From positions 71,032 to 135,031 of the IMG/VR virus record IMGVR_UViG_3300032214_000528: a stretch of 64,000 bases of DNA. One strand, written 5' to 3'. Origin of the DNA: a virus. The notes below the pieces were generated by a model. The model had not been told where the DNA came from. It saw only the letters and a list, made by a program, of their open reading frames with translations, and made no database searches. A program made the translations under genes and the position numbers. Each line of letters starts with the position of its first letter. Position 1 is the first letter of the stretch. Below, one piece after another: positions 12,484-35,676 of the stretch.

Positions 12484-14184
12484 ATGGGTATTTTCACCAA
12501 CGACGATTCCACACCAGTCACACCCGCTCCTAAAAAATCTGCCCCGTCAGCTTTATCTACTATTTTTACATCTAACGCACAAACAGTTGCCTACTCAACT
12601 CCTCGGGCACTTACTGCTGCAGCAGCGCAGTTAAAAGTTAATGACAAGGGAGAATACGAACAGTTTAGAATTCGTCGCTCTGCAGGTTCATCTGCATGGC
12701 AAGCCGAAGCTTGGGAGTACTACGACGCAATCGGTGAAGTTAAATATGCTTTTAATCTTGTAGCATCAGTTGTTTCACGAATTAGAATTTATGCAGCAGT
12801 AATTGATGATCCAGCAGAGGCACCAGTATCAGTTCGCAACTCAGACAAAGTCGATGATCGTCTTGCACAAGCAGCAGAACGTGCATTAGATAGGTTAAAC
12901 TCTGCATATGGTGGACAAGCAGGATTACTTAAAGATGCAGCTCTCAATCTTTCAGTTGCGGGTGAGTGCTATCTCGTACAAATGCCCGCTCGTCCAGGAC
13001 ACGGTCTTCCTGAGTCTTGGGATATTCGTTCTGTTGACGAAGTAACAACAGATCCAAAAGGTGGCTTCAATGTCATTGGTCGCCGTGAGCAGGGATCTAA
13101 CTCACAAAGCTCTAACACTAATTTAAATACAAAGCTTGGTAAAAATGCATTTATAGGACGCATCTGGCGTTCACATCCTCGTTATTCAGATGAAGCAGAT
13201 AGCTCTTTAAGAGGTTTGCTTGATCTTTGTGCTGAACTTCTTCTATTGAATAGGACATTCCGTGCGACTGCTCGTTCTCGCCTTAATGCTGGCGCTCTTT
13301 ATCTCCCAGATGGTCTTTCGGTTGCGGCGCAAGCGGATCCAGACTACCCCTACGATTCTGAGGATGGTATCGGCCCAAACTTTACTGCTGAAGAAGCAGA
13401 GGACGAATTCGAAGAACAATTAATGGATGCGATGACGACTCCAATCAGAGATGAAGAGTCTGCATCAGCAGTTGTCCCACTTATCATTCGTGGCCCAGCG
13501 GAACTTGGCGACAAGATTAAGCAGTTTAAGTTTGAGCGTTCATTCGACCCAGCACTTGCACAACGTGCTGACCGTGTTCTCGAGCGCATTCTTCAGGGAC
13601 TAGATGTTCCAAAGGATGTTGTAACAGGTCTTGCAAATGTTAAGTACTCAAACGCACTTCAAATCGATGAAACTCTCTATAAATCACATATAGAACCTTT
13701 GATGCTGCTTATTGCAGATGCACTAACTGTTGTTTATCTTCGTCCTTATCTTATTGCAAGTGGTTTCACTGAAACAGATGTAAATCGTCTTGTTGTTTGG
13801 TATGACCCATCAGCAATTGCAACTCGTAATGACCGTGCATCAGATGCTGATTCAGGATTTGATCGTGGAGCAGTTTCATACGACACATGGCGTCGTGCTC
13901 ATGGCTTCTCGGATCAAGATGCACCAACTCCAACAGAGATGGCAATCCGTATGCTTTCAGAGCGTGGAGTGCTTACACCAGAGCTTACAGAAGCAATGCT
14001 TGGAGCAGTTGCACCAGATGTTATGGCTGCAATACGTACTGCACAACAAGAAGCATCTGTTGCCCCGCTACCCCCAGAGGTTGAGCAAGCACTTCAGCAA
14101 GCATCTGCAGGTGCAGAGGCAACAGGAAATGTTGCTGAATCCCCAGATGCAGAGACAGCACCTGAGGGAACAGAGAATGTCTGA
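12484..14184 (+). CDS. Portal protein
   Basis: Size and position; WQAEAWEYYDAIGEVKYA and HPR...ADS motifs like actinophage portals. Confidence 0.8.
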   Translation: MGIFTNDDSTPVTPAPKKSAPSALSTIFTSNAQTVAYSTPRALTAAAAQLKVNDKGEYEQFRIRRSAGSSAWQAEAWEYYDAIGEVKYAFNLVASVVSRIRIYAAVIDDPAEAPVSVRNSDKVDDRLAQAAERALDRLNSAYGGQAGLLKDAALNLSVAGECYLVQMPARPGHGLPESWDIRSVDEVTTDPKGGFNVIGRREQGSNSQSSNTNLNTKLGKNAFIGRIWRSHPRYSDEADSSLRGLLDLCAELLLLNRTFRATARSRLNAGALYLPDGLSVAAQADPDYPYDSEDGIGPNFTAEEAEDEFEEQLMDAMTTPIRDEESASAVVPLIIRGPAELGDKIKQFKFERSFDPALAQRADRVLERILQGLDVPKDVVTGLANVKYSNALQIDETLYKSHIEPLMLLIADALTVVYLRPYLIASGFTETDVNRLVVWYDPSAIATRNDRASDADSGFDRGAVSYDTWRRAHGFSDQDAPTPTEMAIRMLSERGVLTPELTEAMLGAVAPDVMAAIRTAQQEASVAPLPPEVEQALQQASAGAEATGNVAESPDAETAPEGTENV

Positions 14185-15154
14185 CGCAAAAGCCCCTAAG
14201 AAAGATCAAATCAAAGGTTCTAAGAAAAACGCTAAAGGATCTGCATCAGGTTCTCGTAAAGTAGTTTTTTCTAAAGCAGTTGAAAAATCTCTTGCAGATA
14301 AAGTAGCAACTCACAACGAGAAAGCTAGAGAAGGCCGTCGTGCAACTCTAGGAATGCTCAAGGCTGTCTATCGCCGTGGTGCAGGTGCTTACAGCACTTC
14401 ACATCGTCCCGGTATGACTCGCAACCAATGGGCTATGGCTCGTGTTAATGCATTTTTGAAGATGCTCAAGTCTGGTAAGCCAGCGAACTCAGCTTACAAG
14501 TCAGATAATGACTTGCTCCCAGCAAAGCATCCTCGTTCAACAAAGAAGAACAACTCAATCACTGCTTCGGCTGGATTAGTTCCAGAAGAATCAGACCTAG
14601 CTAATGCTCTCATTGAGATCGCTGAGAAGTATGGAAAGTTCAACGAAGATGCAACAGGAATTTGGGCAGGATACACCCCAGCCGCAGAAAATAAATACAA
14701 AGGAATCGGAGTCAAGTGCTCTAGCTGTGTTCTATACATGGGTAACGGCTCGTGCAGAATCATCGAAACAGAAGTCGAAGACGAAGGTAAGTGTCGTTTC
14801 GCGGTTATCCCAGATGGGGTCGTTGATGTCGGAGTTCTCGAAGGCGAAAAACTCGGAAACGAAATCCAATCCTTAGAAGAGCTTGCACAGATTGCTGAAG
14901 AATATAGATTTGAACAAGAGTTGGCAGTAGAGATACTTCCTGAAGAAGAATACGACTCACCAGAACACGCTATTCTTTCTTTAGCAGAGTTTTCAGGGTT
15001 TGGTTATGAAGCAGAGCATGCAGTTCGTGCATCTTGGCTTCGTGGAGTTCGCAGCGGTGACGATCCATTCAAAAGAGCATCTAATTTTGCAATACTAGGT
15101 TATGAAAGCTTAGATTCAGATTTGTTACCTAAAAAGGGAGAAGATAATGTCTAA
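14177..15154 (+). CDS. Head-module protein with DUF5824-like and HiPIP-like domains (325 aa)
   Basis: LKAVYRRGAGAYSTSHRPG...QWAMARVNAF; CSSC...C...C cluster; start trimmed to ATG 14177. Confidence 0.75.
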   Translation: MSDAKAPKKDQIKGSKKNAKGSASGSRKVVFSKAVEKSLADKVATHNEKAREGRRATLGMLKAVYRRGAGAYSTSHRPGMTRNQWAMARVNAFLKMLKSGKPANSAYKSDNDLLPAKHPRSTKKNNSITASAGLVPEESDLANALIEIAEKYGKFNEDATGIWAGYTPAAENKYKGIGVKCSSCVLYMGNGSCRIIETEVEDEGKCRFAVIPDGVVDVGVLEGEKLGNEIQSLEELAQIAEEYRFEQELAVEILPEEEYDSPEHAILSLAEFSGFGYEAEHAVRASWLRGVRSGDDPFKRASNFAILGYESLDSDLLPKKGEDNV

Positions 15155-18100
15155 GAAGAATCAGAGACAGCTTCACGTTCTCTCTCAAAGCGAGACTACA
15201 TACAGCACTCGTCAACAAGCACGTCTAATCCGTAACGAAGCACTACAAATGATTGAGGCAGCTAATGAATTTACAACTAACACCCGTAGAGTTAATCGTC
15301 GCTCAGCTTTCCGTGTCATTTCTCGCTCTCTTCATTCTTCTGAAGGTCTCCCATTTTCAGTTCGTAAGCACCAAGCGCTCACAGAACTCTCAAACTACAT
15401 CTCACTTGCAAAACACAACAAGGTAGTTGGCTTAACAGCATTTAACACCGATCTTCTTCCACTTACACACCCACGTTCGACTCGTGAACACTCTATGACG
15501 GCTTCAGCGATGATTCGTTCACATATTCAATGGGTTACAGATGATCCACGAATCACAGATGAGAACGCTAAGGCACTTATTGCATCTGCAATGCTTGCTC
15601 CAGCTAACTCTCCAGAAAAACTTTATGCACTTACACGCTTAGAGAACCTTCCACAAGGCCATGTTCCACTAGAAGCAATGACTGCAGCATATGGTGGAGG
15701 AAACTCTGCTGCTGCAAAGCGTGCTCGTGTTGCTCTCCAGCTCCGCGACCGTTTGGGCCGCTGGGTTGAGATGTTTGGTGGCCTTGGTATCAAGGTAAAG
15801 CGTCGTGACGGAAGCACAGCAGCTCTTACAGGTCGTGCAGTAGGGCAGAACATCTTTAGTCCACAACTTGCAGATGTCGAATTAGAAGATGGACGCATTG
15901 TTGCAGTACCAATTCGTCAAGCACGAGGTGCAACATTCCTTCCAAGCCCTGCAGCAAAGAAAGATGGCTTTACACCTGCTGGTTCAACAGCAGATGACAT
16001 GGATGACCCAATTATCGATGAAGCAGATCTTACATTTATGGAAAGTCCTAGCTCATTTGAGAAAGATGAGAGAGGAAGCAAGCAGGGAACAACAAAATAT
16101 ACTGATCAAGCCTACGATGTAGTTAAGTTTGATGATAACAAGCGTGCTCTTGCAGATTTAAGTGAGACAAACAAACTTAGAGCAGAGCGTGACTTAGACG
16201 ATGCAGCAGTTGATAAGCAAGGCGAGACAGATCCAGACTCAGGTAAGCAATTTTGGGATCCAGAGAAGCCAATCTATGCAGTCTCACGTCGTGGCGGAAC
16301 TCCTTTTGCATATACACAGAACTGGAACGATGCACAGCAAAGAATTCAAGCAGATCAAAGATTCCTTGATGAAGAAGAGGGTCGTACACCTCTTGCGAGA
16401 ATTACTCAGGATGACAACACTCCTGAAGACGAGACTCCACTTGTAGATCAGCAAGATAAGTTTAAGAAGGAAGAGATCGCACGTCTTCCAGAACAAGAAA
16501 CAACAAAAGCTCCATCTGATTTTAAATACAAAGTTCCAGAAGATACTTATGAAGTATCTGATCCAACAGCGCCATACCGCTCCGTATCTGAGTATGACGA
16601 TCCTGCATCTCTTGCAAATATGTTCCAAGGTGATGAGCTCATTGATGGTCTTGATGATGCAATGGATACTGGTCTTGGTCGCCTCACATTCCCAGATGGA
16701 ACAGATTCAGATGGAGAACCTACTGGTGGAGAGCAAGAAGTTCCAGCAGAAGCAATTCTTAAAGCAATTGATGAAAAGGGCGGGGATGCAGAACTTGCAC
16801 TTGCTCAAGCATACGATAAGCGTCTAGGGACAACAGAAAATGAAGACGCACTTGCTGCAAAGCGTGAAGCAGATAGAGGAGCAAAGGTTGGCGAGCCAAA
16901 GAAGCTCGGCGAAGTATTCGACGAAGTAACAAAGGCTCCAGAGCCAGAAGCAGAAGCACCAGTTGAAGAAACTCCTGTTGCAGAGATCCCAGAGATTACT
17001 GAAGATGCAGAGCCATCCACATATCCAGCTCTAATTGATGGACTTACAGAAGAAGAGCAAGCAGAGTTTGAGAAGAGCAAAGACTACACTCCATATCTCA
17101 CAGAAGATGCTCCAGTCGAGTGGCCAGAAGGTTTTACACCGCCACAAAATAGAATTCTTAGCGAAAAAGAGCGTGCACAAGCTTTAGAAATTGCTAGCTC
17201 AGATATTCCTGACGAAGATCTAGCCGAGTCATACAACGGTGCAATCAAAAATAAATATGACGAAGATGGTTATGCACCATTTGGTGATTTAGACGAGAAC
17301 AACGAAGTGCAGACAATTCAAGTACCAAGTGAAGTTCTTCGTGATGCAATGAAGCTTCGCAACTTTGACATGGACGAAACTAATCAACAGGTTGTTGACG
17401 GAACTTGGGATGAAGTAGACCCAGAAGATGAAGTTGCATTGGAAGAAGAACCTGTAGCAGAGATTCCTACACCAAAGACTCCAGATGAAGGCAAGGGAAC
17501 TAAGTCTGGCAAAGATCCTCTCAAGGAAGGTTGGGGATCGGAAGACTGGATTGACGAAACATCTAAGGATCCTCGTTTCCACGAGATGCTTAAGAAGAAT
17601 AAAGATTTTGCAAGACTTACTGGTTTCTTTAACGATCCAACATTCGATAGCCCTCTTCTCTCTGACTACCAAGACAAAGATATGGAAGGCTTTGAGTCTG
17701 GCAGTGAAGTAGAGGCAATCGATCTTGGCGAGTATGGGTTTGAACCAGGACCTTCAGCCCGTGTTCAGTATGCACTTGATATTTTGCAAGATCCTACACA
17801 ATCAGCTCGTGCTGGTTTCAAGGACTGGAGAACTGGTGAGCGCTCAGCAGAGAACGAAAGAAATATTCTCAAGGCAGCAGATGAGCAACTAGATCTTGCT
17901 AAGCAGGATCTCTCTGAAAAAGATGTTATTGAAAACAAAGCAATTGATTCTGTCCGTGCAACTCTTGCAAAAGAAATTGCAAAGCTTGACAAGCAGATCG
18001 AGAAAGATAAGAAGGCTGAGGAAGAAGCAAAGATTGCTCCTCAGGTTTCTTACAAACTAAGAGGAGATCGCTTAGAGCTTCGCTCTGGTAAGAAGGCTCC

Positions 18101-21100
18101 ATTCAGAAGACAAGATGTAAAAGACTTTTTAGATGATAATGGTTTTGATTGGAACCCAGATGCTAAGGCTGAAACAAAATCTGGTATGGATGAAGCAAGC
18201 GCTAAGAAGTTCCTTCGTGATTTAAGAGATAAATATGGTATTGATCTTCTTCCAAGAGAAGGACAGCCACCAATCGACCTTGAATCAAAGGACGAAGTAA
18301 TTGAAGCTCCTTCAACTCCTGAAACTCCATCTGCAAAGCCAAAAGAAAAGTCTCTCAAAGAAAGAGAAGAAGAAGAGTTCGGTAAGTTCTTACCTCTTCC
18401 AGATCCCTTACCTGAAGGTTGGGTAAAAGATGAAGAGCGTGGATTCAACGAAGTTTATTACATGCAAGCTGTTGAAAACGAAAACGGCGATAGAATTGTT
18501 GGAACATACGGTAAGGATGGAAGTAGAGACCCATACTGGACAGTAAGCGCTGACTTTGACTCGCCAGAATCATTTAAGTCTTTTGAAGATGCACTTGATT
18601 TCTATAACAAAAATTCTGGAAAGCAAACAGAAGACAGTGCCGAACCAGAGACTTCTGAAGACACAACACCTGTTGAAGATGTAGTTGAGCTATCCCCTAC
18701 TCTAAACGAAAAATTACTAAAGCGTGATGGCATCCAGATGGTAAAGATCACTGGCCCAAATGGAGAAGAGATTGAGACACCAGTCTTTAATCTTCGTGGT
18801 CGCCCTATGGTTTTAATCAATGTTAATGGTGTACGCATACCGTTCTACATTAGCTCGGGTAAAGGCGGTAAAGCAGGTGTTCCTGTTGGAAAGTGGTATC
18901 CAATCTTTGGAATCGGTACCGATGGCTGGTTTAATAAGGGCAACGAAGAAGAGATTAACAACTACTTCGATAGTCCAGAGCTAAGAGAGGTAGCTGAATG
19001 GCTTAACTCTAATATTGGAGATATCCGTAAAGAAGATATGCCAGAGTCTGACGAAGTCACTGACGAGCTTCGTGCACAGATAAACCAAGACCTATCTCCA
19101 GGTCGTTACTATGAAAACGCTGTTGTCTACGGAAATAGAGCTCTTGCCCTTGCAAAAATTAGGGGAGATGAAGAAGCAGTAAAACAAGAAGAAGCAATTC
19201 TTAAAAAATACCTAGACGATATAGCAAAATTTGAAGCTGAAAAGAAAAAGCAAGAAGAAGAAGGACAGGAAGAGCCAACTGTAGAAGAAGTAGTTCCTGA
19301 AGAAGAAGAAGTAAAAGAGCCTGTTGCTGAAGAACCTGCGGCAAAAAGGAATATCTTCCAAGAATCACTTGACATAATTCAAGAGGGACTTCTTGATGCA
19401 TTGTCAGAAGAAGGTCCTAACATAACTGTCTCAGAGTTAGTAGATAGACTGAAGCGTAAGCTAAAGGGTGATGACAAAGTTGTAGGAGATTATGGCACTA
19501 GAGGTGACATGATTAGCAAGCTCATGTGGGCTAAGTGGGGCGCTGGTTTCTGGAGAAACGAATCTCCATACATTAGAAGATCCATGAGCGAATACAAGTC
19601 TGAATTAAAGAAGCTCTCAGACGAAGAACTTATTGCATTAGTTGATATGTATTACGACGAGATTGATGCTCGTCTTGAAGCTGAGAGAGAAGCATCACGA
19701 CCAGTTGAACCAACGCCGCTTACTCCTGAAGAAGCTGCGGAAGTAGAGAGAAAGCGTAGAGTTAAAGAGCTTCGTGATAAGAAGCGCAGAGAGCGTGAAG
19801 ACAAGCTTCTAGAAGAAGATGATAAGGCTAAGGAAGAAGAAGAAAAGCCAACCCCTGCAACCCCTGCAACCCCTGCAACCCCTGCAACCCCTGCAACCCC
19901 TGCGAAGCCAACTCCTACAACCCCAGAAAAGCCTAAGCCATCTGATTACGAAGAAGACACTCCTGATGGATTTGTTTATGTTGACAAGAGCGACAATGAC
20001 GTTAAAGATGGAGATGAAATTAATCTCCCTAGTGTTGGCTGGGTAAAAGTTAAGAGAAAGGTTTTCCTTCCTGGTAGAACCACTGCAGATGTTGTCTATG
20101 AAGATGAAAATGGTAATGAAGGTACTGGTTTCTTACCTAGAACAGTTGAGACTCGTGCTAAGCAAGCTCCTGCTGAAGAACGCAATCGTAAGACTCCAGC
20201 AAAGCTTAGAGTCGGAGAAGAAGTCTATCTTGTTGATAAAGATGGAGATGGTCCTGGCTGGGTAAAGGTTCTAGAAGTAAAAAAGAGAAATTGGAATTCA
20301 GGGAACAGTAAAGGCGACCAAACCACATGGGAAATATGGTACGAAGATGCAAATGGAAAGCGTAGTCTTTGGACATATAACTACTGGAGCAGTAGCAGTT
20401 GGGGCGGAGACGGTCAAACTGGTAAGTTCCCTACTCGTCCTGCAACATCTAAAGCACCAGAACCTGTAGAAGAACCTTCAGTAACAGTTACGCCTCGCAT
20501 TGCTGCATCTAGAACAACAGATCTTAAGCCAGGCGATGTTATGACTAAGGACTTCTTTACAGTCACAAATGTAGAGCAAGGATTCGAGAAGAAGCGTGAT
20601 GGAGAAATGGTTCCAGCTTCTCGTGTCACTGGTTACTATCCTGGCGGAGTAGAGCAGTCAAGCAAGCTTTGGGCAGACGACGTTTTATTTGATGTATATC
20701 GTGATGTAACTCCTCCTGCAAAGGGAGATCTTCCAGAACTTAATCAGCCAAAGATGGGTGATTATGGAAAGCTCACAAAGGTCAATGGCGAATGGGAGCT
20801 AAAAGACCCAGCTGAGCAAAAGCAATTTGAACAAGACATGGAAAAGTATCAGGAGCAACTATCCACACAGAAGGCTCTTTGGGAAGCTCCAGTTGTTGAA
20901 GTTCCTGTAAAGGAATTTACACCTGAAAACACTCTCCACGTTGTCAACGCACTTGGTAAAGATCTCAAGCCAAACGATATTGCATTCCGTCGTGACGAGA
21001 ATGGTGAGCTCAGCGAGTTTTTCGTTATTGAAGAAGTTCTTCCAGGCACAGTTATGGTCCCTCGTGCAGATGGAAAGCCAGCAGAAGAGAAGGTTCAAAT

Positions 21101-24100
21101 CCGTGGATACTATCCAGGACACGAATCACAAGTTAAGTCTTGGAAGACTGGCACATCTGTTGAAGTTCTCCGTGGGGAACAAGCAGCAAACATTCCTGCA
21201 AAGGGTGATAAGCCAGCAATCGATAGCATCGAGCCAGGAACTCTCAAGGGTCAGGCATACAAAGATAAGAACGCAGAAATTTCAGCATTAAGAAAAGAAG
21301 CTGGCAAGGCATACACACCTGATCTAACAGCCTCAGAGATTCCTGCAGTACTTGTAGAAAGACCTAATAGCTTTAATCGTGGAAACCGCCCAGCGTTCTT
21401 TGGCAAGGCTGCAGAACTTGCAAACCTCAAAGATGGTAAAGCAATCTCTGATGCTCTTAAGGGCAAGCGAGTTGTCTACTTCGACTTTGAAACAGTAGGA
21501 ACTGGAAAGTTTGATAACGACAATCCTGATGCACCAATTCAGGTTGCAGCATCTGTCTGGGAAGGTGGAGAAAAGGTTGGAGAGATCAACCTATTCATTA
21601 ACCCAGGAGAGCCTCTTGGGGACTATTACTATAAAGAAGATGAAAACGGAAACAAAGTTCTTGATCCAGAAAAGCTTCTCAGCTCAGACGGGCAGACAGT
21701 TGATGATGCATTCTTAGCATCTCAACCATCTATTGAAGATCAGCTTCGTGCATTTGCAGAGTTTGCTGGACAAGATGCAATCTTTGTTGCACACAATGCA
21801 GAGTTTGATACAAACACATTCGAGAAGTGGGCTCAGAAGCTAGGTATTGACTACAACATGGATGGTGTTATCGATACTCTTGAATTAGCAAAGAGCATGA
21901 CACCAAAGGGCAACAAGCTCGGTCAAGTTGCTAAGCGCTACGGTATTGAGAAGACAGATGAAGAGTGGCACGATGCTAGAACTGACTCTGAGGTTCTCCC
22001 AGCAATCCTAGAAGGTTTGCTTGGAGATATGAAGCCTGACAATAGAGAGTTTGATCCTGCAACTCGTCTTGCAGAGTTTGAAGCTAAGCGTTCTTCTTAC
22101 AATGAAAAGCTAGAAGCATTTAAGAAGCAAGAAGCAGATCTTGCTATGGCTGAAGCAGTCAAGCGTGGTATGGCTGGAGAGCCTGTATCTATTGATGAAA
22201 TGCTTGGCAAGACCAAGACAACATCTGGCTTTGGTTCTGAAGGAAGCACAGACTCTGCTGAAGAGTATGCATATGAATCAATCTTTGGTGGAAAGATTAA
22301 CAACTCTTGGATCGAAGATGATGAAAACACATTCGTTGTTGACGAAGGTGCAGCAACTGTAGGAGATATTAAGATTGGTGACTTCGTACCTGCTGAGGGT
22401 GGCGGATACCATGAAGTTGTTGACCTGCTTGCAGACCCAGAAGATCCAAACGGAACTATCGTTGTTCGTAAGATTGTATCTAGCGGTTTGCTATACAGCA
22501 CACGAGTTACAGAGAAGAAGTCTCCAGGAATTGGTTGGTCTAACGGCAAGGTTCTTAAGGGAACTCTCCGTCGTCGTAACGAACTAGCTGGTAAGACACC
22601 TGCAGAAGTTAAAGCTTTAGTATCTAAGCCAGTAGTAGTTGCTCCAGAACCTACAACAAAGGAAAAGACTCCTACACCTAAGGGTAAGAAGTCAATCACT
22701 CCAGAAGAGACACAAAGTGTCGTCTCGGATGCGATTGAGGCAATTACATCTGGTGCTAAGTCAGATTCATCTGTTGAAGATGCGGTAAAGGGTCTTCCAC
22801 TTGATGACACCACTAAGTCTGCAGTTCTTGCAGATCGTGAAGATGCATCTATTAATCACCTATCAGCAGACGGTGTTGCTCTTAAGGTTGGCGACAAGGT
22901 TCGCAACGTAAAGAATGGCCGCATGGGTGAGGTAAGAGCAATTCTTACAACATACGGACCTCGTGGATACAAGAATTACGTCAAGGTTAAGTTTGACGAT
23001 GCTGCAAAGCGTGAAAATGTTTCAGCAGGTTCACTACAGATCATTAATCCTGATGACGGTGGCGGTTTCTTCACAGATCCAACTCCTCCTGCAACTGGAG
23101 AGCCAGTAAACCCTAACGAGACACCAAAGTCTGCAGAAGAATTAACTTCACTTCTTACTGGAGATGTTACAGATAACACTCCTGCAGTTGAAGTTCCAGA
23201 AGAGCCTGTAGTTATGGATGCTGAAGATCGAACAAGAATTTGGAAAGAAAACGAAGAAAAGAGAATGAAGTACGCTCTTGATCTTAACTATCGCCAAGTA
23301 AGCCCTGAAGCATTAGAGGCACTTACAGCAGCAGTTCAAGATATATCTCAATATGACAAGGGTCATCAAAGATCTGTTACAGCATTTATGCCAAGTCTTT
23401 CTACTGGATTGCCAGTAGAAAGAACATTTACGTTTGTAAAGCCAAGTAAAAAAGATCTTGAGCGTCGTGAGGACATGGAAGCAGACGATATTATCGTTAT
23501 GATTGGTCCTCGCAATACTGAAGCAATTATTAAGTCAGATGGAAGAATTCTTTATTTTGATAATCCATCTGTTCCAAACTGGAACTTTAGTGTTAGATCT
23601 CCAGATCTATACTCAGCTATTGAAAAATCAGACGAGGTCACTTTTCCTTTAGGGGAAAATCCTGATCTTCAAAATATGGGAATGATTTCAAATAATCAAG
23701 AGTTCCCTAAAGATGCTCTTGGAAGTCCAGATGAGATAGAAGATCCAGATTTTGTTGTAGATAGCCCTGATGCAGAGCCAAAGGGAATCAAGCCAACCAA
23801 GCAACAGCAAGCAGTTATAGATGCTGTAGTTGCTGGCAAGGATGTAATTGTTCAAGCTCTTGCTGGAACAGGTAAGACCAGCACACTGAAAATGGCTGCA
23901 AAAGCTGTTGCAGAAAAAGATCCAGACAAAACTATTCTTTACATTGCATTTAACAAGGCTGTAGCTGCAGAACTTAATGCAGATCCAGATCGTCCTTCAA
24001 ATATGATTGCACGAACCAATACTCAGGTTGCTTGGCACCATTCACCTAAGTGGATGCAAAAGCGTAGCTTTGACAAAACACTGCTTTCACTGCCAACTGA

Positions 24101-27100
24101 TGTAGCTGATCATCTCGAGATCGGACCAGTTAAGGTTACAGAGATTAAGAAAGACGGATCAAAGGTAGAAGCAACTCTTTCAAGTAAAGATGTCGTTGGA
24201 GTAATTCGTCAGGCAGTAACAGCATTTGCACAGAGTGCAGATGAAAAGATTATGCCTCAGCACTTCACAGATAACTTTGTAGACATTCCTGAAGTGTTTA
24301 TTGACTACGCAAACCGCTGGTGGGACGACATCTCAAGCCCTAAGGGTAAGCTAGCGATGAATCAGTCTTACCCAGAAAAATATGTTCAGCTAAATGGCAT
24401 AGATGTAACAATGTCTCCAAGTGAAGCGGGTGCAAACCCAGCAACAATGATCCCTGCAGCAGACATTATCTTCTTTGATGAAGCACAAGATATTAATGAT
24501 GTTGCTGGCGATTGGGTTCGTAAGCAAACTGTACAAAAAGTATTCGTTGGCGATGGAAATCAATCTATCTATGGTTTCCGTGGAGCAAAGGATCAACTAG
24601 ATACTCTTGAAGGAGCAGATAAGCTTCAAATCACAGAGTCGTTCCGCTTCGGTCCAAACATTGCAGCACCTGCCAACCGTTTCCTTGCTGTTGCTGGAAA
24701 GCCAGAAAGAGTTGTTGGAGCTGGAAAAGATCAAGGTAAAGTTGTAGAAAGCCTTGACGAGATGCCAGATCCAGATGCAGTTCTTGTCCGCACAAACGGT
24801 GGTGGATTTAAGGCAATGCTTGAGTATCTTGAGCAAGGAAAGACTGTCGGAATTAGTCAATCAACTAAGACAAGACTTGAAGAAGTTATTGACACAACAA
24901 GTTGGCTCATGGGCGGAAAGAAGGGCTCAAAGCCAGCTAAGTACAACGCAGAAATTGGAATGTACGACTCTTGGGAAGAACTCTCAACTGCAGTACGAGA
25001 AGGAAAAGCTCGTCCAGTTAAGGCTTTCTATGACTTAGTCACTCAAAACGGAATGCAAAGTATCCGTGACATCCTAGATCGTGTTGTCGTAGAGCGTGAA
25101 GAGACTGAAGAAAGTAAGGCAGCTCGTAAATCTTACGTCCCTATTAAAATAGATGATGCATTAGATGGATCTACAGGATCTTTAGGTTCTGGATTAAAGT
25201 ACGAGGTTAAAGGTAATACGATAGTTGTAACTGGATTTACAACACCAGACCTTGCAGAAAAACTTCGTAATGCAGGTATTCCAGCTAGAAAAACTGGAAA
25301 CAAGGTTAAAAACTCTAAGGGCGAGCTTAAAGACGAATGGGTCAGAGATAAAGTAATTGAAGATGACCTTGAGAGAACAGATAAACTAAATAACATTAAA
25401 AAGGCAGTTGCTGGAATTATAGATTCAGCTTCAGCAGATGTAGTTGTAACAACAGCACATCAGTCAAAGGGTCTGCAGTGGAACAAGGTTCGTATTTATG
25501 ATGACTTCTGGGGTCCAAAGTTTAATAAGGAAACTGGCGAGATTGATATGCCATCACCAGAAGAACTTCGTCTTGCATATGTAGCAGTAACTCGTGCTCA
25601 GAAAGAAGTCTACTTAGGTCCTCTAAGCTGGGTTAACGATTACACATCTGATGAAGATGAGCAAGCTTCGTTCTCTCTGGAATCAATGAATAATATTGAA
25701 ACAGACCCAGTTCCTGTAACACCAGAAGAGTTTGGTGATGAAGTACAGGAAACTGCAAAGAAGATCGATCCAGCCACTCAAAAGATTGCAGATGCAATTA
25801 TTGCAGCCCTTGAAGCAGGAACTGCTCCTTGGCGTAAGCCTTGGACTGGCGGGGGATTCCTCCCAACTAGCGTTGCAACTGGCAAGATGTATGAAGGAAC
25901 AAACGTTCTCGTACTCTGGGCTGCTCAAGAGCGCAATGGTTGGTCAGATAATCGCTGGCTTACATACAAGCAAGCAGAAAAGCTTGGCGGAAACATTAAG
26001 CGTGGCGAGAAGGCAACTTCAATTATTCACTGGACTCCAAAGTTCAAGGATGTCAAGCAGCCAGATGGAACTATCGAAAAGGTATTCGTTTACACACCTC
26101 CAAAGATCATCAATGTTTTTAACGTAGAGCAAGCAGAAGGAATTAATCTTCCTCCACTTGTTAAGGGTGATCCAATTCCAGTAAGCCAAGCAGAGCAAAC
26201 TCTTCTTGACACATACAAGGATCGTCCAGAGATTTTCTACAAGTCCCAAGACAGTGCTTACTACTCTCCAGTAACTGACACAATTCACTTGCCGCTCCGT
26301 GAGCAGTTCGGTGCAGAGCAAGACATCTTTGAAACCCTAGTTCACGAACTTGCACACAGCACAGGACACACATCTCGTGTGAACCGCAAAGATCTTACAG
26401 ATAACTACGGAACTCACAAGGCTAGCCGTGGTGAAGAAGAACTTATTGCAGAGATCTCTGTAGCATTAGTTGCTGCTCGTCTCGGCGTTGAGATTGACTT
26501 TGGAAATGTTGCTGCATACGCAAAGTCATGGCTACCAGCCGTAAAGAATGACCCAACAATGATTATCAAGGCAGCCAAGCAAGCACAAAAAGCTGTAGAC
26601 CACATGCTAGGAAAGCAAGAAGAGCCAGCAAAGTTTGATGAAGACGGAAACTCAACTGAGCCTGTTGGCGAAGGTGTTGGTAGCGAAGGTTTAACTGGAG
26701 AAGAGATCTCAGAAGAGGCGGACTCAAGTGAAAAACCTAATAGTAGAGGCTATGTCCGATCAGAAATAGATCCTACCGATTTAAAGGTTGGAGATAGATT
26801 AGATATCTCTGGGAAGAAAAGAGTCGTAGCTGTTAATGCTAGAGAAGATAAGGTTCTTGTATCTACCAAAGTTATAGGTTCTAGAGGTGGCGGGTTCGAA
26901 TCTTTTGATAAAGATAAAAAAATATATGTTTGGAGAAAACCAGAAAGCGTTGGTAGCGAAGGTAAGACTGGCGACGAGATTGCAGAAGATGCAGGACTTA
27001 AGCCAGAGTCAACTCCTGAACCTAATGTAGGAGAGCAGGGTAGAACTGGAGAAGAGATTGCTCTAGAAGGTGATATAAAACCTGCTGGTACAAAAGGTGG

Positions 27101-27749
27101 ACATGATCTTAGCCCTAGAGAAGTATTTAACAATAATTCAGCCCGTAGTGATCGAGATGTTAAAAAAGTATATGGTGCAGAAGAAAAATGGACGCCTCAA
27201 ATACAAAAACCTTTTAAACGACCTGTTGCCCCTAAACGTGCAGATTTTCCAGATTCAGACTCATATGTAGCAGCTTATAAAAAATACTCTAAAGAGTTTG
27301 ATAACGCCTACCGTGAAAGCTCAACATATATTGAATCTCCAATAGGAGAAAAAAACCTAGACGGGTCTGCAAAAGGTGTTAAAAACTATGTAGAAGATAT
27401 AATCACTGCTGATTGGTTTGTAGAAGCCTTTGGTGACGGAGGACAAATGGGCAGACCCCCAGTCAGTTTGATCACTAGTAAAAAAGCAGGTGGTAAATAT
27501 ACTTATGGCTTTAAAAATGGTAAATATATGTCATCACTAAAAATTAACAGCCTTTTATCAACAAATGAACCAGCTATTCTTCACGAGATTGCTCATTTTG
27601 CTACAGCAATTAGCGTGGCAGAGGGATTTGATGCTCATGGTGTAGAGTACAGAATGAATTATATCTATATCACTGATAAAGTACTTGGTCGTGAAGCTGC
27701 AGAAAATCTTAAAGACGCTTACAGAAAGGACAATCTAAATGTCGGATGA
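15147..27749 (+). CDS. Giant polyvalent protein (DEDDh exonuclease, UvrD-like helicase, ArdC-N/MPTase, SprT-like HExxH)
   Basis: YFDFET/HNAEFD/HDARTD; [30 protein letters not shown]; APWRKPW, HELAH; C-terminal HEIAH..HG. Confidence 0.9.
19851..19904 (+). repeat. 9-bp tandem repeat ACCCCTGCA x6 (TPA linker)
   Basis: Five perfect copies plus one variant, in frame. Confidence 0.9.
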
Positions 27750-27852
27750 TTTCGAGTATGAAATTGTGGATCCTCTAGGACCTGACTACAACCCAGAGCC
27801 TTCTGAAGAACCTATTCCTGAAGAAAACGAAGACCAAGAAGAGACGGTATAA
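27739..27852 (+). CDS. 37-aa acidic peptide
   Basis: Read manually: [12 protein letters not shown]...; AAGGA RBS. Confidence 0.5.
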   Translation: MSDDFEYEIVDPLGPDYNPEPSEEPIPEENEDQEETV

Positions 27853-27854
27853 TA

Positions 27855-27980
27855 ATGGCTAAGTCAGATAAAGAGCAATACAACGATGCCGTCGTTGCTG
27901 CTTATCGCAAGATTATCGAGCTAGCAGAGGTTGACCCTAATGCTGACTCTTATGAGCCTGAGGATGAGGAAAAGCTATGA
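27855..27980 (+). CDS. 41-aa acidic peptide
   Basis: Read manually: MAKSDKEQYNDAVV...; ATGA coupling to the next gene. Confidence 0.55.
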   Translation: MAKSDKEQYNDAVVAAYRKIIELAEVDPNADSYEPEDEEKL

Positions 27981-28699
27981 GACTATCTAACGCTAAGTCC
28001 TATCCACTTGAGGGTATGTCTCTAATATATGCAAACGGTGAGAATGTTGTTTACCAAGCTGTATTTTCTACAGAGAAGTTTGGTACTTTTACAAGAGTAG
28101 ATGGCCAATGGCTTGCCTTATCTCCAGAAGATACTAGCCTTGAAAACCTTTCAATCATGGATATCCTCCCTGCAGACTACAAAGTAGTCACAGATATGTT
28201 TGATGCGGCTCAAAAGGCAAAGACTTATCTTAAGTATGATCAGGTAAAAGATTACGAAGTTGCATACTCTTTTGAAGAAAGCGGGAAGTCTATGACTGCC
28301 GCAGTTGAGACATCTGAGGGATGCCCTCCTGCTACATCAGACATTGCAGTCAATCTAGCAAACAGAGAAAATGCTATTAAAACTGCTGGTTATGGGCCAA
28401 TGAATCCAGCACTTCCAAATAACAAGTTTTGGCAAGCAAAGACAGACCGTTGGTCTGTACCAGTAGAAGACGCTAAGAAATCCTTGTGTGGAAACTGCGC
28501 TGTATTCATTCAAACACCAAAAATGCTTGACTGTATTGCTTCTGGACTTGGAAACGAAGCTGGAAATGATGCTTGGGGCTCAATCGAGGCTGGCGATCTA
28601 GGGTATTGTGAAGCATTCGACTTTAAATGTGCAGCTTCTAGAACATGCGATGCATGGGTAGCTGGCGGACCAGTAACTGAGGAGTCAGGAAAAGTATGA
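27977..28699 (+). CDS. Head-module protein with C-terminal Cys-rich (HiPIP-like) domain
   Basis: CGNCAVF...GYC..FDFKCAASRTCDAW. Confidence 0.75.
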   Translation: MRLSNAKSYPLEGMSLIYANGENVVYQAVFSTEKFGTFTRVDGQWLALSPEDTSLENLSIMDILPADYKVVTDMFDAAQKAKTYLKYDQVKDYEVAYSFEESGKSMTAAVETSEGCPPATSDIAVNLANRENAIKTAGYGPMNPALPNNKFWQAKTDRWSVPVEDAKKSLCGNCAVFIQTPKMLDCIASGLGNEAGNDAWGSIEAGDLGYCEAFDFKCAASRTCDAWVAGGPVTEESGKV

Positions 28700-31600
28700 T
28701 GCAATTCATTGGTCGTAATGGAACTAGAGCCCTTTTTGTTTCAGAAGACAAAGGCGTTGTTGTTGACGACTCTGTAAACATTGTTACTGCTCTAGACATT
28801 AAAGAACCTCTTCTAGCATCTTTTGAGTGGGATTCAAAGGGAGCTCGACCAACTGACACAGCAGTAGAGCTTGCAGCCGCTGCTTTAACATCTCTTGATA
28901 TCAAAGTATTTTCAAATAATGACCGCATGTATACAATCCCAGACTCTGTTATTGCAGAGGCAAAGCGTGGACTTGCATGGCGTAAGGAAGAAGATCGTGG
29001 TGGTACTTCAGTAGGTCTCAATACTGCTCGCACACTTGCTCGTGGTGGACAGATTGGTATTCGTAAGGTTCGTCATATTGCAAAATACTTCCCGCGTCAT
29101 CAAGTAGATAAAAAGGGAACTGGCTATAAGCCGGGACAAAAGTCTTATCCATCTAACGGCCGTATTGCTTGGGCACTTTGGGGTGGAGATGCCGCAGAGC
29201 GTTGGGCATCAGCAATCGTAGAGCGTGAAAATAAAGCAGCAAAGTCAAATGCAATGCTTGCTTATGGATACGAGTCATACGAGCATGAAATGCCTAAAGC
29301 AGTTGATTATGACTCATTTATTACTTCTAAGACAATGCCTGAAGATAATGTAATTGAATTTTTTGTTCGTATTCGTATGGATGGTTCTGGTATTGATCGC
29401 CTTTACCGTATTGAGCCAAACGGCTTGATGTATGTATGGGATGACGGCAACTGGGACGATATGGGAAATCCAGACAACGACCATGGTAGCTATGACAAGA
29501 TGTTGGATGATATTGAGGATACTGTTCCTAAGACACACATGCCAGTTGATACAGAAACAGCACTTCTTATTGCTGCTCTTCTAGACAACGAGCCTTTGAT
29601 TGCTCACAGAATTGACAAGATTCAACCAGAAGAGCATAAGATGATTGTTGATGCTCAACCAGAAATCGACTGGGAATTAATGGATGAAATTATCATGCCA
29701 GATGAAGAAGCATTTATGTGGGACATGGATGACTCGCTAACTGCAGCAGGAGAGGCTCCAACAAATCAAGATGGAGAATATACACCTGAAGAGCGCTCAG
29801 CAAATGCTGGTGCACAGCTTCGTGATAAGACAGGCAAGTTTGCCAAGATGGGTGGCCGAGTAGTGATCGGTGGTCGTCCTAACTATCAAGGAAATATTCG
29901 TTCTATTGACAATGTAACAGGTAATGTAAAAATTGAATTAGATAACGGAAATACTGTTGATGTAAGTGCAAAACTTACAGAGCCATTAGATACTTATGTA
30001 CCTATTCCTCAAGGATTTGCTGAAGGCGAGCTAGATACAAATGGAATCCTTGGAGAGCCTCGCACTCCTATGGATTCTCCAATCCGTATGCCAGGAACTT
30101 TACCTTCACTTAATGCTGAAAGCTTAAATAAAGTACTTACTGATTACCCGTCTTGGGTGTCTGATCAAAGACTTTCTCCAGACGTTGCAGCTAAGCCAAG
30201 CGGTATAGATATGTCTGGTCCTGCTGCTAAAAGTGCAAATCCTTTAGAGAAGTACTATTCAAAAGTTAGTCCTTCTGATATGCCTAGAAAAGCAGTAAAT
30301 GCTTACAACATTCCTATTCTTAAAAAATGGCTTGAATCAGGTCCAGAATATAGAAGAGCCCGCAATCCACTACTAAATCCCTACACAGATGCAAAGGGAG
30401 CAGATAGTCCTTTCTTGGATAAAAAAGGAAATCCTCTAAAAGCTTCGGCTGAAAAGTCAACACAAATAACTCCAACAACATCTGATGTTCCAGTTATTCA
30501 CTTGGCAGTAGTTTCTCCAGATGACCCGCAAGCTGTTATGGATTTAGTTGCCTTAGTACCAACAACAAACTCTTCAACAGAGCCAACTACTTTTACTCGT
30601 AAAGACGGTAAGTGGATTCCAGAACCACAAATTCTTTCAGACCTTCGTAGCGCAACTCCGCCTCCAGTAGTAGTTCTAGACGACACCAATCTTGTGGATG
30701 TCTTAGAGCAGGTAGATGGTAAGAAGTCTATTACAGCAGCAGGTGGAGCAGACCGTAATCGTGGACAAGCAGAGAAGCTTCGTCGCTACTGGACTTACGG
30801 CAAGGGTGCAGCAAAGATTCGTTGGAAGACTCCAGGAGATTGGACTCGCTGCTACAAGCAACTTGCTAAATACATGGGTCCTCGTGCTAAGGGCTATTGC
30901 GCCTTGCGTCACAAGGAGATGAATGGCTACTGGCCAGGAGATCGTAAGAATCAAGAGACTTCTAACTTTTCTGTCAATACTATGCGTTCTTATGACGAAC
31001 TTCTGAGCACTTTTGTTATGAGAGCCAAAGCAGCAGATGCTAAGGCTAGAGTCTTAACAGCTGGTGGATATGAGTCAGACGAGACTGCAAAATCTAAGGG
31101 TTCAGAGTTTCTAATCCCTCTTGTCATCCCTGAGGGCATGGAGTCTGGCGACGGAAGAATTATGAGAAAGGGTGCTCTTGATATTAGAGAACTTCCTCTA
31201 CCTCTTCTATGGCAGATTAAAACAGGCGAAGGACATGACGGTTCTGTCGTAGTTGGTCAGATTACTAGTATGGAAAGAACTGACGATGGCATTGGAAATG
31301 CTAAGGGTCACTTCGATACTGGCGAATATGGTAAGGAAGCCGAGCGCTTAGTGCGTGGTGGTTTCATTAGAGGAGTATCAGCTGACCTAGATCAGTTCGA
31401 GGCCGATGATGAGCGCAAAGAGGAAGAAAACGGATCTGACACTAAGGTAGATGCGGGTAAAATTACTATCACAAAAGCACGAGTCATGGCTGTGACTATC
31501 GTGCCTAAACCTGCTTTCCAAGAGTGCACAATTCAGCTTGCAGATGATGCAAGCGTTGAGGAGGATGAAGTGAATATTCCTGACGGAGTTTACGTCGAGG

Positions 31601-33588: not shown

Positions 33589-35676
33589 ATGGACCAAATC
33601 AAAGACATGATGGACCAGTTAGCAGATCTCGATAGCGATCAAGTTACCGACCTGCAAAACTCAATCATCAAGGAATTTGAGTCCGTTGAGAAAGAAGATC
33701 CAACTCCCCAGACAGTTGATGCAATGTCGTCATTAGCCGACATGCTTGACACCGTTCGCGGTGAATTCAAGCGACGTGAGGCAGCAGCACAGGAGCTCGC
33801 ACAACGAGCAGCCGAGGCAGCTTCTCGTGTACATGGCAATGACGGTGAAAAGGATATGGAATCCGATTCCGAGAAGAAGGAAGAAATGCCAGCAGAAACT
33901 GAAGCAATGGCAGAAATGCCAGTTGAAGAAGAGAAGCCAGCAGATATGCCTTCAGAGGAAGTTCCCGCAGCCGAAGCTCCTGTAGCAGAAGAAATGCCAG
34001 CAGAAGAAGAAGCACCATCAGAAGCGATGGACGAGGAAAAGAAAAAGGAAGAGGAAAAAATGTCTGAAGCGTCAACCGAAGCGGATAAGACCGCAGAGTT
34101 CTCAACAGAATCAAATCTTACCGAAGCTGCAGCCGTAGCTGAGGATGCTGTTGTTGCAGATGGCTCAGAGCCAGAAGCAGTAGCAGAAGCAGAAGTTGTT
34201 GCAGATGCAGCAGCAGAAGCAGCTCCAGTATCAGAAGCAGTAGAAGCAGAAGCAGTTGTCGCAGATGAAGCAGTAGCTTCTGATGTTGCAGATGCAGCAG
34301 CTGACGTTGCTGATGGTGCTGAAGCATCAGTAGTAACCCCAGAAGAAATCCCAACAGAGTCAATGACTCAAGAAAGTATGGAGGCACCCGTGACTGCAAG
34401 CGCAGATAACCTCAACATTGAGGTCCCGGCTGATCGTCGTCCTATCACAGAGACTTCTGCCGCAGCTGTGGCAATCACAGCGGGCGCAGACATTCCTGGA
34501 TATACGGCTGGAAGCTCAATGGACTCAATGTCCGATGTATCAGTAGCGATGGAAAAGCGTCTACACGCTCTTCGTCGTGTTAATGGTGGAGATGGAGAGC
34601 AGCACATTGTTGCATCTATCACTACACAATACCCAGAAGGCCGCACTCTTACACAAGATGCAGAGTCAAACTGGGCAAAGGTTCAGGCTGTAACTGGTCC
34701 AGAAGCACTTGTTGCTTCAGGTGGCCACTCAGCACCATTCGAAGTTAAGTACGACATTTTTGGACTTGGCACAACTGCTCGTCCACTTCGTGACGCACTT
34801 CCTCGATTCCAAGCAGACCGTGGCGGTATCCGCTTCGTAACTCCACCAGTACTTAGCTCATACGCTAACGCTGTTGGCGTCTGGACTGCAGCAAACGATT
34901 CAGCAGAAACACCAAGCCCATCTTCAAAGTTGAGCCTAACTGTTTCAGCAGCTTCAGAGCTAACAGTCGCAACAGATGCAGTTACATTGCAACTACAGTT
35001 CGGTAACTTGATGTCTCGTGCATACCCAGAATTGATCGCTCGCCACAATGAGCTTGGTCTAATTCAGCATGCTCGTGAAGCAGAAGGCCAAATCCTTACA
35101 CGTTTGACAGCTTTGTCAACTGCTGTAACTTCAACATCTCTAATCGGTGTAGCTCGTGACTTCCTTGTAACACTTGGTCGTGCAGCAGCTAACTACCGTG
35201 GACGTCACCGTCTAGAGGCAGATGCACCACTTCGTGTTATTGCTCCAGCATGGATCAAGGACGCAATGGTTGCAGATCTTGCTCTCGCAATGCCTGGCGA
35301 CAACACACTCAATGCAGTGGCAGAGATTGATGGCTTCATCGCTTCACGCAACATCAACATCACATACCACCTCGATGATTTCACAGACGCTCAGGGTGCA
35401 TCAGCACTTAACGAGTTTGCTGATACATTCGTTTGGTACATGTTCGCTGAAGGAACATTCTTGTTCCTAGATGGCGGTACATTGGATCTTGGTGTTATCC
35501 GTGACTCAACCCTCGTTGGTACAAACGACTACAAGATGTTCGTTGAAACCTTCGAAGGTGTTGCAAAGATTGGCGTTGAGTCTCTCAAGGTCACATCAAC
35601 CATCTCAGTGAACGGTGTAGCAGCAGCTCTCCGTGACACAACAGGTGCTGCAACAGCTGCGGCTATCGAGTACTAA
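33589..35676 (+). CDS. Major capsid protein with N-terminal acidic scaffold region
   Basis: Acidic N-terminus; LVASGG..AP..V.YD and FLFLDGGTLDLGVIRDS motifs. Confidence 0.85.
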   Translation: MDQIKDMMDQLADLDSDQVTDLQNSIIKEFESVEKEDPTPQTVDAMSSLADMLDTVRGEFKRREAAAQELAQRAAEAASRVHGNDGEKDMESDSEKKEEMPAETEAMAEMPVEEEKPADMPSEEVPAAEAPVAEEMPAEEEAPSEAMDEEKKKEEEKMSEASTEADKTAEFSTESNLTEAAAVAEDAVVADGSEPEAVAEAEVVADAAAEAAPVSEAVEAEAVVADEAVASDVADAAADVADGAEASVVTPEEIPTESMTQESMEAPVTASADNLNIEVPADRRPITETSAAAVAITAGADIPGYTAGSSMDSMSDVSVAMEKRLHALRRVNGGDGEQHIVASITTQYPEGRTLTQDAESNWAKVQAVTGPEALVASGGHSAPFEVKYDIFGLGTTARPLRDALPRFQADRGGIRFVTPPVLSSYANAVGVWTAANDSAETPSPSSKLSLTVSAASELTVATDAVTLQLQFGNLMSRAYPELIARHNELGLIQHAREAEGQILTRLTALSTAVTSTSLIGVARDFLVTLGRAAANYRGRHRLEADAPLRVIAPAWIKDAMVADLALAMPGDNTLNAVAEIDGFIASRNINITYHLDDFTDAQGASALNEFADTFVWYMFAEGTFLFLDGGTLDLGVIRDSTLVGTNDYKMFVETFEGVAKIGVESLKVTSTISVNGVAAALRDTTGAATAAAIEY

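Follow-up and report, generated by a model that had tools for sequence, protein, structure and literature searches.

Locus organization of the giant gene

The virus record IMGVR_UViG_3300032214_000528 is a complete genome of 135,031 bp with direct terminal repeats, and the window analyzed here corresponds to its final 64 kb (64,000 nt; positions 71,032 to 135,031 of the record). In the head operon of this window we identified a gene encoding a 4200 amino acid protein, hereafter the giant (465 kDa, pI 4.75), which occupies 9.3% of the genome and combines a conserved N-terminal segment (the header) with at least six recognizable modules, including an exonuclease, a helicase, an ArdC-N domain, an MPTase, a TIGR04338-like zincin and a domain with a PFY..WYP signature (Table 1). 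The giant shares a module of its header with the capsid protease of the same operon and is therefore probably loaded into the head and ejected with the DNA. The presence of three WhiB genes in the genome points to an actinobacterial host, and the nearest relatives are the lake-metagenome phage DSL-LC01 and Microbacterium and Arthrobacter phages with genomes of ~190 kb.

Table 1. Features of the head operon and segments of the giant, with positions in the window (nt), strand and supporting evidence.
Feature	Position	Strand	Evidence
Portal protein gene, 566 aa	12484..14184	+	phrog_776, E 4.9e-111; 70% identical to Actinomycetia phage DSL-LC01 portal
325-aa open reading frame (ORF), N-terminal DUF5824 domain and Cys-rich middle part	14177..15154	+	PF19141, E 1.3e-9, 38.7 bits (cut-off 25); local hidden Markov models (HMMs)
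Giant polyvalent protein gene, 4200 aa	15147..27749	+	One uninterrupted ORF
Conserved N-terminal header, family-defining, aa 1-340, pI 9.4	15147..16166	+	Alignment A2, 29 sequences, 32-94% identity
Helical DUF5824-like header domain, aa 20-182, invariant DLLP-x2-HP-x-S	15204..15692	+	AlphaFold2 (AF2), predicted local distance difference test (pLDDT) 85-93; reciprocal HMMs
Q-x-RD-x2-GR[WF]-x2-M helix and small beta module, aa 184-262	15696..15932	+	Alignment, AF2, HMM
Acidic low-complexity spacer, probably disordered, aa 341-1185	16167..18701	+	No family match
PFY..GGK..WYP..WFNK domain, aa 1185-1350	18699..19196	+	Alignment A3; AF2; standalone homologues
Beta-rich small-barrel-like segments, aa 1590-2040	19914..21266	+	Read from sequence; family architecture table
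DEDDh (DnaQ/PolC-type) 3'-5' exonuclease, aa 2101-2297	21447..22037	+	PF00929; NCBIfam PolC/DnaQ models; PDB 2p1j
Superfamily 1 (SF1) UvrD-type helicase, aa 2881-3490	23787..25616	+	phrog_1967; Pfam UvrD-helicase and UvrD_C; PDB FBH1, UvrD
Complete ArdC unit (ArdC-N binding single-stranded DNA, MPTase; HELAH, EELIAE), aa 3536-3827	25752..26627	+	PDB 6I89/6SNA; phrog_7245; Pfam
Three VG[SE][EQ]G-x-TG[ED]EI copies flanking a small beta segment, aa 3845-3975	26679..27071	+	Sequence; family table
C-terminal HEXXH zincin, aa 4073-4190	27363..27716	+	Weak match to TIGR04338 HEXXH_Rv0185; standalone homologues; ESM Atlas
orf240, 240 aa, 7 Cys	27977..28699	+	Paralogous to middle of upstream DUF5824 ORF, HMM E 3.7e-15; synteny table
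Prohead-protease fusion, 1576 aa	28696..33426	+	phrog_859, E 5.5e-98; phrog_18402, E 4e-61; weak Peptidase_S78
Second Q-x-RD-x2-G[KR][FW]-x2-M/beta module, protease fusion aa 366-426	29791..29973	+	HMM E 1.4e-6
Major head protein, 695 aa, cysteine-free	33589..35676	+	phrog_777, E 2e-83; cysteine count

The genes are ordered portal, DUF5824 ORF, giant, orf240, protease fusion and major head protein, followed by adaptor and tail genes. A first-pass annotation of the window, made from the sequence without database searches, had placed the giant between the portal and the maturation protease; both do flank it, but two smaller genes, the DUF5824 ORF and orf240, also lie between them. It should be noted that the stop of the portal gene overlaps the start of the DUF5824 ORF by 8 nt (ATGTCTGA), that the stop of the latter overlaps the start of the giant gene by a further 8 nt (ATGTCTAA), and that a Shine-Dalgarno sequence (AGGGAG) lies upstream of the ATG of the giant gene. 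A search for + strand terminators in the portal-to-protease block revealed none that was convincing, and sigma-70-like promoter matches between positions 11500 and 29500 were fewer than in shuffled sequences (14 vs 27.3 +/- 4.6), which fits one long late transcription unit. Our analysis shows that the giant is a single polypeptide encoded in the late head operon, whose translation is coupled to that of the portal and DUF5824 genes. Its 4200-codon frame is uninterrupted, as had been read at first pass, with relatives in 110 database clusters and, by motif scan, in 258 IMG/VR contigs. The ORF is conserved at full length across numerous independent assemblies, which led us to reject an assembly artefact or a set of fused pseudogenes.

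The giant occupies the usual slot of MuF proteins after the portal, in a genome that itself lacks MuF. No MuF match was found in Pfam at E<=0.01 for the whole giant or at E<=1 for 29 header sequences, nor at E<=0.1 across the whole 135-kb genome, under conditions in which control genomes did match; likewise, no solved MuF structure appeared among the fold matches of the header. The absence of MuF noticed at first pass is thus borne out, and the idea that the giant is a MuF protein in disguise was rejected, as neither the protein, its 29 header homologues nor the genome gave a profile match.

A conserved header and a module shared with the prohead protease

Database searches with the header retrieved the 110 clusters mentioned above, corresponding to proteins of 2.3-5.4 thousand amino acids. 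A profile built from 29 diverse headers (A2) extended the family to 534 clusters (defined at 50% identity), of which 208 matched at E<=1e-30. The 150 matches listed all begin no later than residue ~33, in proteins as long as 7004 amino acids, and header-bearing proteins mostly measure 1.8-7 thousand amino acids. The AF2 model of the header (mean pLDDT 74) comprises a helical domain, a helix with the Q-x-RD-x2-GR[WF]-x2-M motif and a small beta domain. Local HMMs suggest kinship between the helical domain and the DUF5824 domain encoded just upstream, matching reciprocally (E 4e-10 and 5.6e-11), and both sequences have DLLP-x2-HPRST in common. The upstream ORF scores above the Pfam cut-off for DUF5824 (PF19141), whereas the header of the giant has no Pfam match and is linked to it by the local HMMs and the common motif.

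The Q-x-RD..GR[WF] signature occurs exactly twice in the genome, once in the header of the giant and once in the prohead-protease fusion. The shared head motifs noticed at first pass are real and correspond to the DUF5824-like domain in the upstream ORF and the RD..GR[WF] module in the protease fusion. Among related loci, the module is present in 11 of the 13 protease-side ORFs that cover the region; it is also found in gp79 of phage Mimi, and three times in DSL-LC01. In a short form of 70 amino acids it makes up the extreme N-terminus of gp77 of Arthrobacter phage Mimi (2709 amino acids, annotated as 'DNA helicase') and gp82 of Microbacterium phage Pumpernickel (2235 amino acids), two large proteins encoded in the same slot in cultured phages. 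Prohead proteases are built into procapsids, as established for HK97-type phages. That the giant has a module in common with the protease fusion is therefore the strongest hint from computation that both may enter the procapsid by the same contact.

Searches for relatives of the header beyond its own family gave little. It matched no Pfam family and no PDB sequence, and its modelled fold retrieved nothing from the PDB with Foldseek (best E 0.27). In the BFVD database the only matches were short and weak (E 1.6e-3 at best), to XkdF/prohead-protease and ChaB-type proteins from uncultured phages, and the wide VIA search returned generic helical bundles (Z<=6.5). This lack of a match does not by itself show that the fold is new.

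Enzyme modules of the giant

Domain mapping with Pfam placed the named enzyme domains where they had been read at first pass; the automatic JGI annotation already names three domains of the giant. The first enzyme is a DEDDh exonuclease (RNase_T/DEDDh, PF00929; residues 2110-2284, E 9e-15, 56 bits with a cut-off of 24), whose motifs are intact and comprise Exo I D-x-E (FDFET, 2112), the Exo II D (HNAEFD, 2216) and Exo III H-x4-D (HDARTD, 2275). Its best NCBIfam and PDB matches are PolC/DnaQ exonuclease (proofreading) domains, including 2p1j (E 1.3e-9).

The second enzyme is a full UvrD-like helicase with both halves recognized by Pfam, UvrD-helicase/AAA_19 at residues 2885-3148 and UvrD_C at 3426-3490 (PF00580, 41.7 bits with a cut-off of 23; PF13361, 36.5 bits with a cut-off of 25.6), and with a contiguous match to phrog_1967 (E 2.7e-72). 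Motifs I (AGTGKT, 2906), II (FFDEAQD, 3109), III (3135), V (TAHQSKGL, 3436) and VI (VAVTRAQ, 3479) were located, and a motif-IV-like stretch, ITESFRF, was read in the translation. These conserved motifs and the matches to both the N- and C-terminal UvrD domains are those of SF1A helicases of the UvrD/Rep/PcrA type; the nearest PDB entries are FBH1 (E 1.8e-23) and UvrD (E 5e-8).

The third is a complete ArdC unit, in which ArdcN (PF08401; residues 3543-3631, E 2.4e-29) is followed by MPTase-PolyVal (PF18818; residues 3699-3812, E 2.7e-28). This unit aligns with residues 10-285 of the 297 of ArdC in PDB 6I89 (phmmer E 1.2e-47) and matches phrog_7245 (E 2.7e-67). Its HELAH motif (3733) aligns with HEATH, and the downstream glutamate in EELIAE is conserved, as in full-length ArdC. 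The first-pass reading of an ArdC-N domain joined to a HELAH MPTase thus extends to a full-length homologue.

Finally, the C-terminal zincin has HEIAH at residue 4146 (nt 27582), exactly where it had been predicted, followed by DAHG at 4162. It matches profile positions 44-154 of the 161 of TIGR04338 (29.1 bits, E 7.7e-7), below the curated cut-off of 90 bits; on profile similarity, it is a distant relative of Rv0185-type HEXXH metallohydrolases and not a member by that threshold. Homologues exist as free viral proteins of 250-300 amino acids, and in ESM Atlas viral-protein clusters (score 0.93). Judged from their motifs, the enzyme modules look catalytically intact. Searches with Pfam and family models found no methyltransferase family in any segment of the giant.

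Spacer, PFY..WYP domain and linker motifs

The header is followed by an acidic spacer of 845 amino acids (net charge -107, pI 4.26). Next comes the globular domain that the first-pass annotation had picked out by its PFYISSG..WYP pattern (PFYISSG at residue 1232, nt 18840), for which AF2 gave a confident fold (pLDDT 87, predicted template modelling score 0.85). Its invariant positions are R, PFY, G, K, WY and W-x-NK, and it also occurs as a standalone protein or fused to FHA, ADP-ribosyltransferase (ART), M23 or GNAT domains (homologues P0137-P0173), a distribution that marks it as a mobile phage domain. No structural neighbour was found with Foldseek (E>=0.13) or VIA (best Z 3.1), and there was neither a PDB profile match nor a useful lead in the ESM Atlas. 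One standalone copy lies in a TAG-recoded (TAG=Q) crAss-like phage, between the muzzle gene and the gene of a 3224 amino acid giant, and another lies two genes from a DUF5824 gene (loci L092 and L095).

The beta-rich segments between this domain and the exonuclease matched no family model; their part at residues 1790-2040 goes with the exonuclease across most of the family. A perfect (TPA)5 repeat (residues 1569-1585; 19851-19901) was also observed in a Pro/Lys/Glu-rich linker of the giant.

The stretch from the ArdC unit to the last zincin contains three copies of the motif VG[SE][EQ]G-x-TG[ED]EI, and a degenerate fourth copy is found at residue 2363. Of the 62 family members with an MPTase, 51 have the core motif, GSEG-x-TGEEI, invariably directly behind the MPTase, compared with 0 of the 49 that lack an MPTase. 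The motif is a candidate self-processing site. Two broader roles were considered and rejected. A k-mer analysis did not reveal a junction-peptide code in the giant, as it found just (TPA)5 and GSEG-x-T; and the motif is not a shared prohead-protease site, as it is absent from the portal, protease, capsid and other head proteins.

Cargo exchange and cysteine exclusion across the family

Our survey of domain architectures in relatives revealed a conserved header, portal-adjacent synteny and variable cargo. The order portal, DUF5824 ORF, header-bearing giant and protease is kept in all related loci inspected, including those of Mimi, Pumpernickel and DSL-LC01. According to precomputed Pfam assignments, the cargo consists of the exonuclease alone, or of the exonuclease together with NUDIX, ArdC/MPTase, UvrD, PF03496 ART, SprT, PI3/4-kinase-like, primase/Toprim or GNAT domains. 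No other cargo is retained as widely as the exonuclease and the beta-rich segment that flanks it. The spacer varies widely in length and content, and the header alone is constant. Header and cargo also diverge independently of each other: P0016 has 57% identity in the header and 81-92% in the cargo, whereas P0007 and P0009 have 90% identity in the header and just 62-64% in the exonuclease. As far as alignments can tell, the cargo is a mosaic that is swapped freely while the header is retained.

The giant has no cysteine in its 4200 residues, compared with ~34 expected from the 0.81% of the remaining proteome (P~1e-15). Cysteine is almost excluded across the family as well, with 45 residues in 385,222 (0.012%) over 111 proteins, 86 of which have none, compared with 0.55% in the other structural-block proteins of the phage and 1.04% in the rest of its genome. 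Such an exclusion would fit proteins that spend some time outside the cell and are unfolded for ejection. The major head protein and a 1162 amino acid protein of the tail block (40659-44147), which may be the tape measure, are also cysteine-free.

PF03496 ART domains were observed inside header-bearing or PFY-domain giants encoded outside the window (P0036, P0101 and P0139). Kavagutti et al. (10.1101/670067) suggested that PF03496 ARTs of freshwater phages act against grazers as 'trojan horse' toxins. The position of these domains in the giants suggests delivery into the bacterial host instead, and the finding that some freshwater-phage ARTs sit inside head-operon giants bears on that proposal.

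A putative packaged and injected cargo protein

Four indirect lines of evidence from sequence comparison fit virion cargo: the portal-adjacent synteny and coupling, the N-terminal header that recurs in part in the protease fusion, the cysteine exclusion, and the mosaic cargo. We regard it as probable, although well short of certain, that the giant is a phage polyvalent cargo protein which is docked by its header, packaged in the head and ejected with the genome for counter-defence or DNA processing. Its packaging in the head is likely on this evidence, its injection is a prediction, and its cleavage, if it occurs, is the least supported part of the proposal, so that the first-pass interpretation of packaged, cleaved and injected cargo is partly supported. 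The header could dock the giant into the assembling procapsid through an interaction shared with the protease fusion, and a few copies would remain in the head with the DNA. At infection, the cysteine-free, linker-rich chain could thread through the portal and tail with the genome, before phage gene expression. In the actinobacterial host, the ArdC unit would then bind single-stranded or entering DNA and block type I restriction, whereas the exonuclease and helicase might process DNA ends or nucleic-acid components of host defence, a candidate role being the resection of the direct terminal repeats for circularization. The two zincins might either attack host proteins or cut the chain into modules, with the GSEG-x-TGEEI joints beside the MPTase as candidate sites.

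The closest virion proteomics comes from Gordonia phage GMA2, a distant relative whose portal is 40% identical and whose post-portal protein of 884 amino acids was detected in purified virions by mass spectrometry (PMC4524720, Table S5). HMM searches gave no match between the giant and the post-portal proteins that were detected in virions of Gordonia phages GMA2 and Mareelih, and homology to these was rejected. The GMA2 proteomics thus gives positional support only, because its post-portal protein is not detectably homologous. The N-terminus of Mareelih gp77 (L088) does contain a KHPR-x3-GRF-x3-GG stretch followed by a beta-looking segment that resembles the module by eye, with no HMM match; it may be a more distant version of the module in phages whose portals are ~40% identical.

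Several observations weigh against packaging and injection. Docking is deduced solely from context, as the header has no recognizable fold and no known relative that binds portals or capsids, and in two related loci (L071 and L072) the protease gene does not contain the module. No homology was detected between Orf10 of GMA2 and the giant, and GMA2 has a MuF protein of its own; GMA2 provides the sole virion proteomics near the lineage, and we found no proteomic or structural evidence for any family member. ArdC of plasmid R388 is active upon synthesis in the recipient cell and does not require its protease activity for anti-restriction (PMC7213743). As for cleavage, no protein-wide junction peptide emerged from the k-mer analysis of the giant, and the association between the GSEG motif and the MPTase may be simply inherited. 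Finally, the exonuclease and helicase could equally serve replication, recombination or packaging.

This last point leads to the strongest alternative, in which the giant is a late cytoplasmic or portal-associated DNA-processing machine that is not ejected. Its exonuclease, helicase and ArdC-N domain would act on replicating or concatemeric DNA at packaging, for example by trimming or unwinding branches or by preparing terminal repeats, and its header would tether it to the portal or procapsid during assembly only. Replication and repair classically involve exonucleases and helicases, and the best matches here are PolC/DnaQ, UvrD and FBH1; the genome does have direct terminal repeats, the giant gene is coupled to that of the portal, and no direct evidence places the giant in virions. 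Nevertheless, packaging would hardly call for the ART, GNAT, kinase, NUDIX and SprT domains found as cargo in the family, a complete ArdC unit has its anti-restriction role at DNA entry (PMC7213743), and the near-absolute exclusion of cysteine is not expected of a purely cytoplasmic enzyme. The free exchange of cargo behind a retained header also counts against it. We consider this alternative unlikely.

Somewhat less likely still is a mainly structural role, in which the giant would be an internal head protein (inner body, scaffold or DNA organizer) whose spacer and beta segments serve assembly or condensation, with accessory or inactive enzymes. The long, strongly acidic spacer, the repeated small beta segments and the module held in common with a protease/scaffold-type protein would suit such a role, as would the precedent of P1 DarA and Hdf, which shape head morphogenesis and line the capsid (PMC12810830). 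Opposed to this are the catalytic motifs of the four enzymes, all intact and conserved over hundreds of lineages, and the variability of the spacer next to a header that alone is constant. Delivery of a toxin to other organisms such as eukaryotic grazers, as proposed for phage ARTs by Kavagutti et al. and in keeping with the ART-bearing family members, is very improbable here, as the giant of the window has no ART, its cargo is DNA-directed, and its header and head-operon position argue for delivery into the bacterial host.

Comparison with known systems

Capsid packaging, injection and processing by the MPTase have been predicted for polyvalent phage proteins (Iyer, Burroughs, Anand, de Souza, Aravind 2017, J Bacteriol; PMC5512222), which are defined by two to fifteen distinct enzymatic or nucleic-acid-binding domains in one chain, by origin from a conjugative element or from a phage (there in a portal-terminase/virion-gene context), by hallmark domains such as ArdC-N with MPTase, and by entry into the recipient along with the DNA. 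The giant corresponds to this definition in its number of domains, its portal, protease and capsid gene context and its ArdC-N and MPTase pair, and its entry with the DNA is predicted from synteny, the shared module and cysteine exclusion, so that the first-pass description of a polyvalent ArdC/MPTase protein in a head operon holds in the sense of these authors. Like the proteins they described, it combines many domains in one chain, in a tailed phage with portal-terminase genes and beside virion genes. Unlike them, neither the giant nor its genome has MuF, and its own header matches none of the Pfam LPD families. Moreover, its core cargo is a DnaQ-type DEDDh exonuclease, which is absent from the discussion in that paper; its UvrD-type helicase is found there only in giant actinomycete plasmid proteins; and the near-total exclusion of cysteine that characterizes its family is not mentioned.

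The ArdC unit is a full-length homologue of ArdC of the IncW plasmid R388 and of pSa (PDB 6I89 and 6SNA), with an N-domain that binds single-stranded DNA and an HExxH...E metalloprotease. The plasmid protein counters HsdRMS type I restriction (PMC7213743). It is, however, a free protein of 297 amino acids, whereas the unit described here is a module of a 4200 amino acid phage protein, for which anti-restriction is putative.

P1 DarB (2255 amino acids, methyltransferase and helicase) is likewise a very large DNA enzyme with a helicase. Dar proteins are packaged in the P1 head (PMC9024508, PMC12810830), and DarB is loaded in a manner dependent on head morphogenesis and protects the incoming DNA. 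The likeness is functional only, as no sequence relationship was found and the giant lacks a methyltransferase; in addition, P1 is an enterobacterial myovirus that requires DarA, Hdf and other Dar proteins for loading, rather than an N-terminal header.

The N4 virion RNA polymerase (3500 amino acids), which contains an MPTase region needed for encapsidation (PMC5512222), and the ejected cargo proteins of crAss001 (PMC10172136) resemble the giant in their very large size, and are stored in the head and ejected through the tail with unfolding. They are, in contrast, different enzymes (RNA polymerase) from other phage lineages, with no common header. Finally, effector fusions of the MuF/SPP1 gp7 type (PF04233) share with the giant the slot directly after the portal and the combination of an N-terminal head-association part with a variable C-terminal effector, but no sequence similarity was detected.

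Although the polyvalent concept has already been published, the literature searched does not describe the header, how large its family is, its ban on cysteine, its exonuclease core or the orphan-fold domain. A broader proposal, in which our confidence falls a little short of even, is that the header is an unrecognized, transferable capsid-loading address used by phages of actinobacteria in more than 500 clusters, which serves interchangeable multi-enzyme cargo of up to 7,000 residues and part of which loads the prohead protease, the cysteine ban being a signature of proteins that have to survive outside the cell and pass unfolded through the tail. If so, the header would define a MuF-independent protein-injection system with a DnaQ-type exonuclease as ancestral payload. 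As a loading tag, it would provide a simple sequence rule to find injected effectors in abundant, mostly uncultured phages of freshwater actinobacteria, and could be used to introduce foreign proteins into phage heads. The exonuclease, helicase, ArdC, zincin, ART, GNAT, NUDIX, kinase and primase cargo of the family can be regarded as a set of candidate enzymes for counter-defence in the first minute of infection, to which a domain with no structural neighbour is added. The cultured Arthrobacter and Microbacterium phages with the short form of the module make packaging directly testable.

Additional features of the locus

The DUF5824 ORF and orf240 have in common a Cys-rich segment with seven cysteines in each, in sharp contrast with the cysteine-free giant encoded between them, and in many relatives orf240 is fused to the DUF5824 ORF as one post-portal gene. 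The 228-nt gap after the giant gene (27750-27976) contains two possible tiny acidic ORFs, one of ~29 amino acids with a GTG start near 27767 and one of 41 amino acids (27856-27981) that overlaps the start of orf240 (ATGA). In two related loci (L055 and L056) the giant is encoded as two ORFs, which could reflect a real split, a frameshift or a sequencing error. In a third (L084, IMGVR_UViG_3300032268_000572), two consecutive ORFs of 1104 (5821-9132) and 3461 amino acids (9437-19819) both bear the module.

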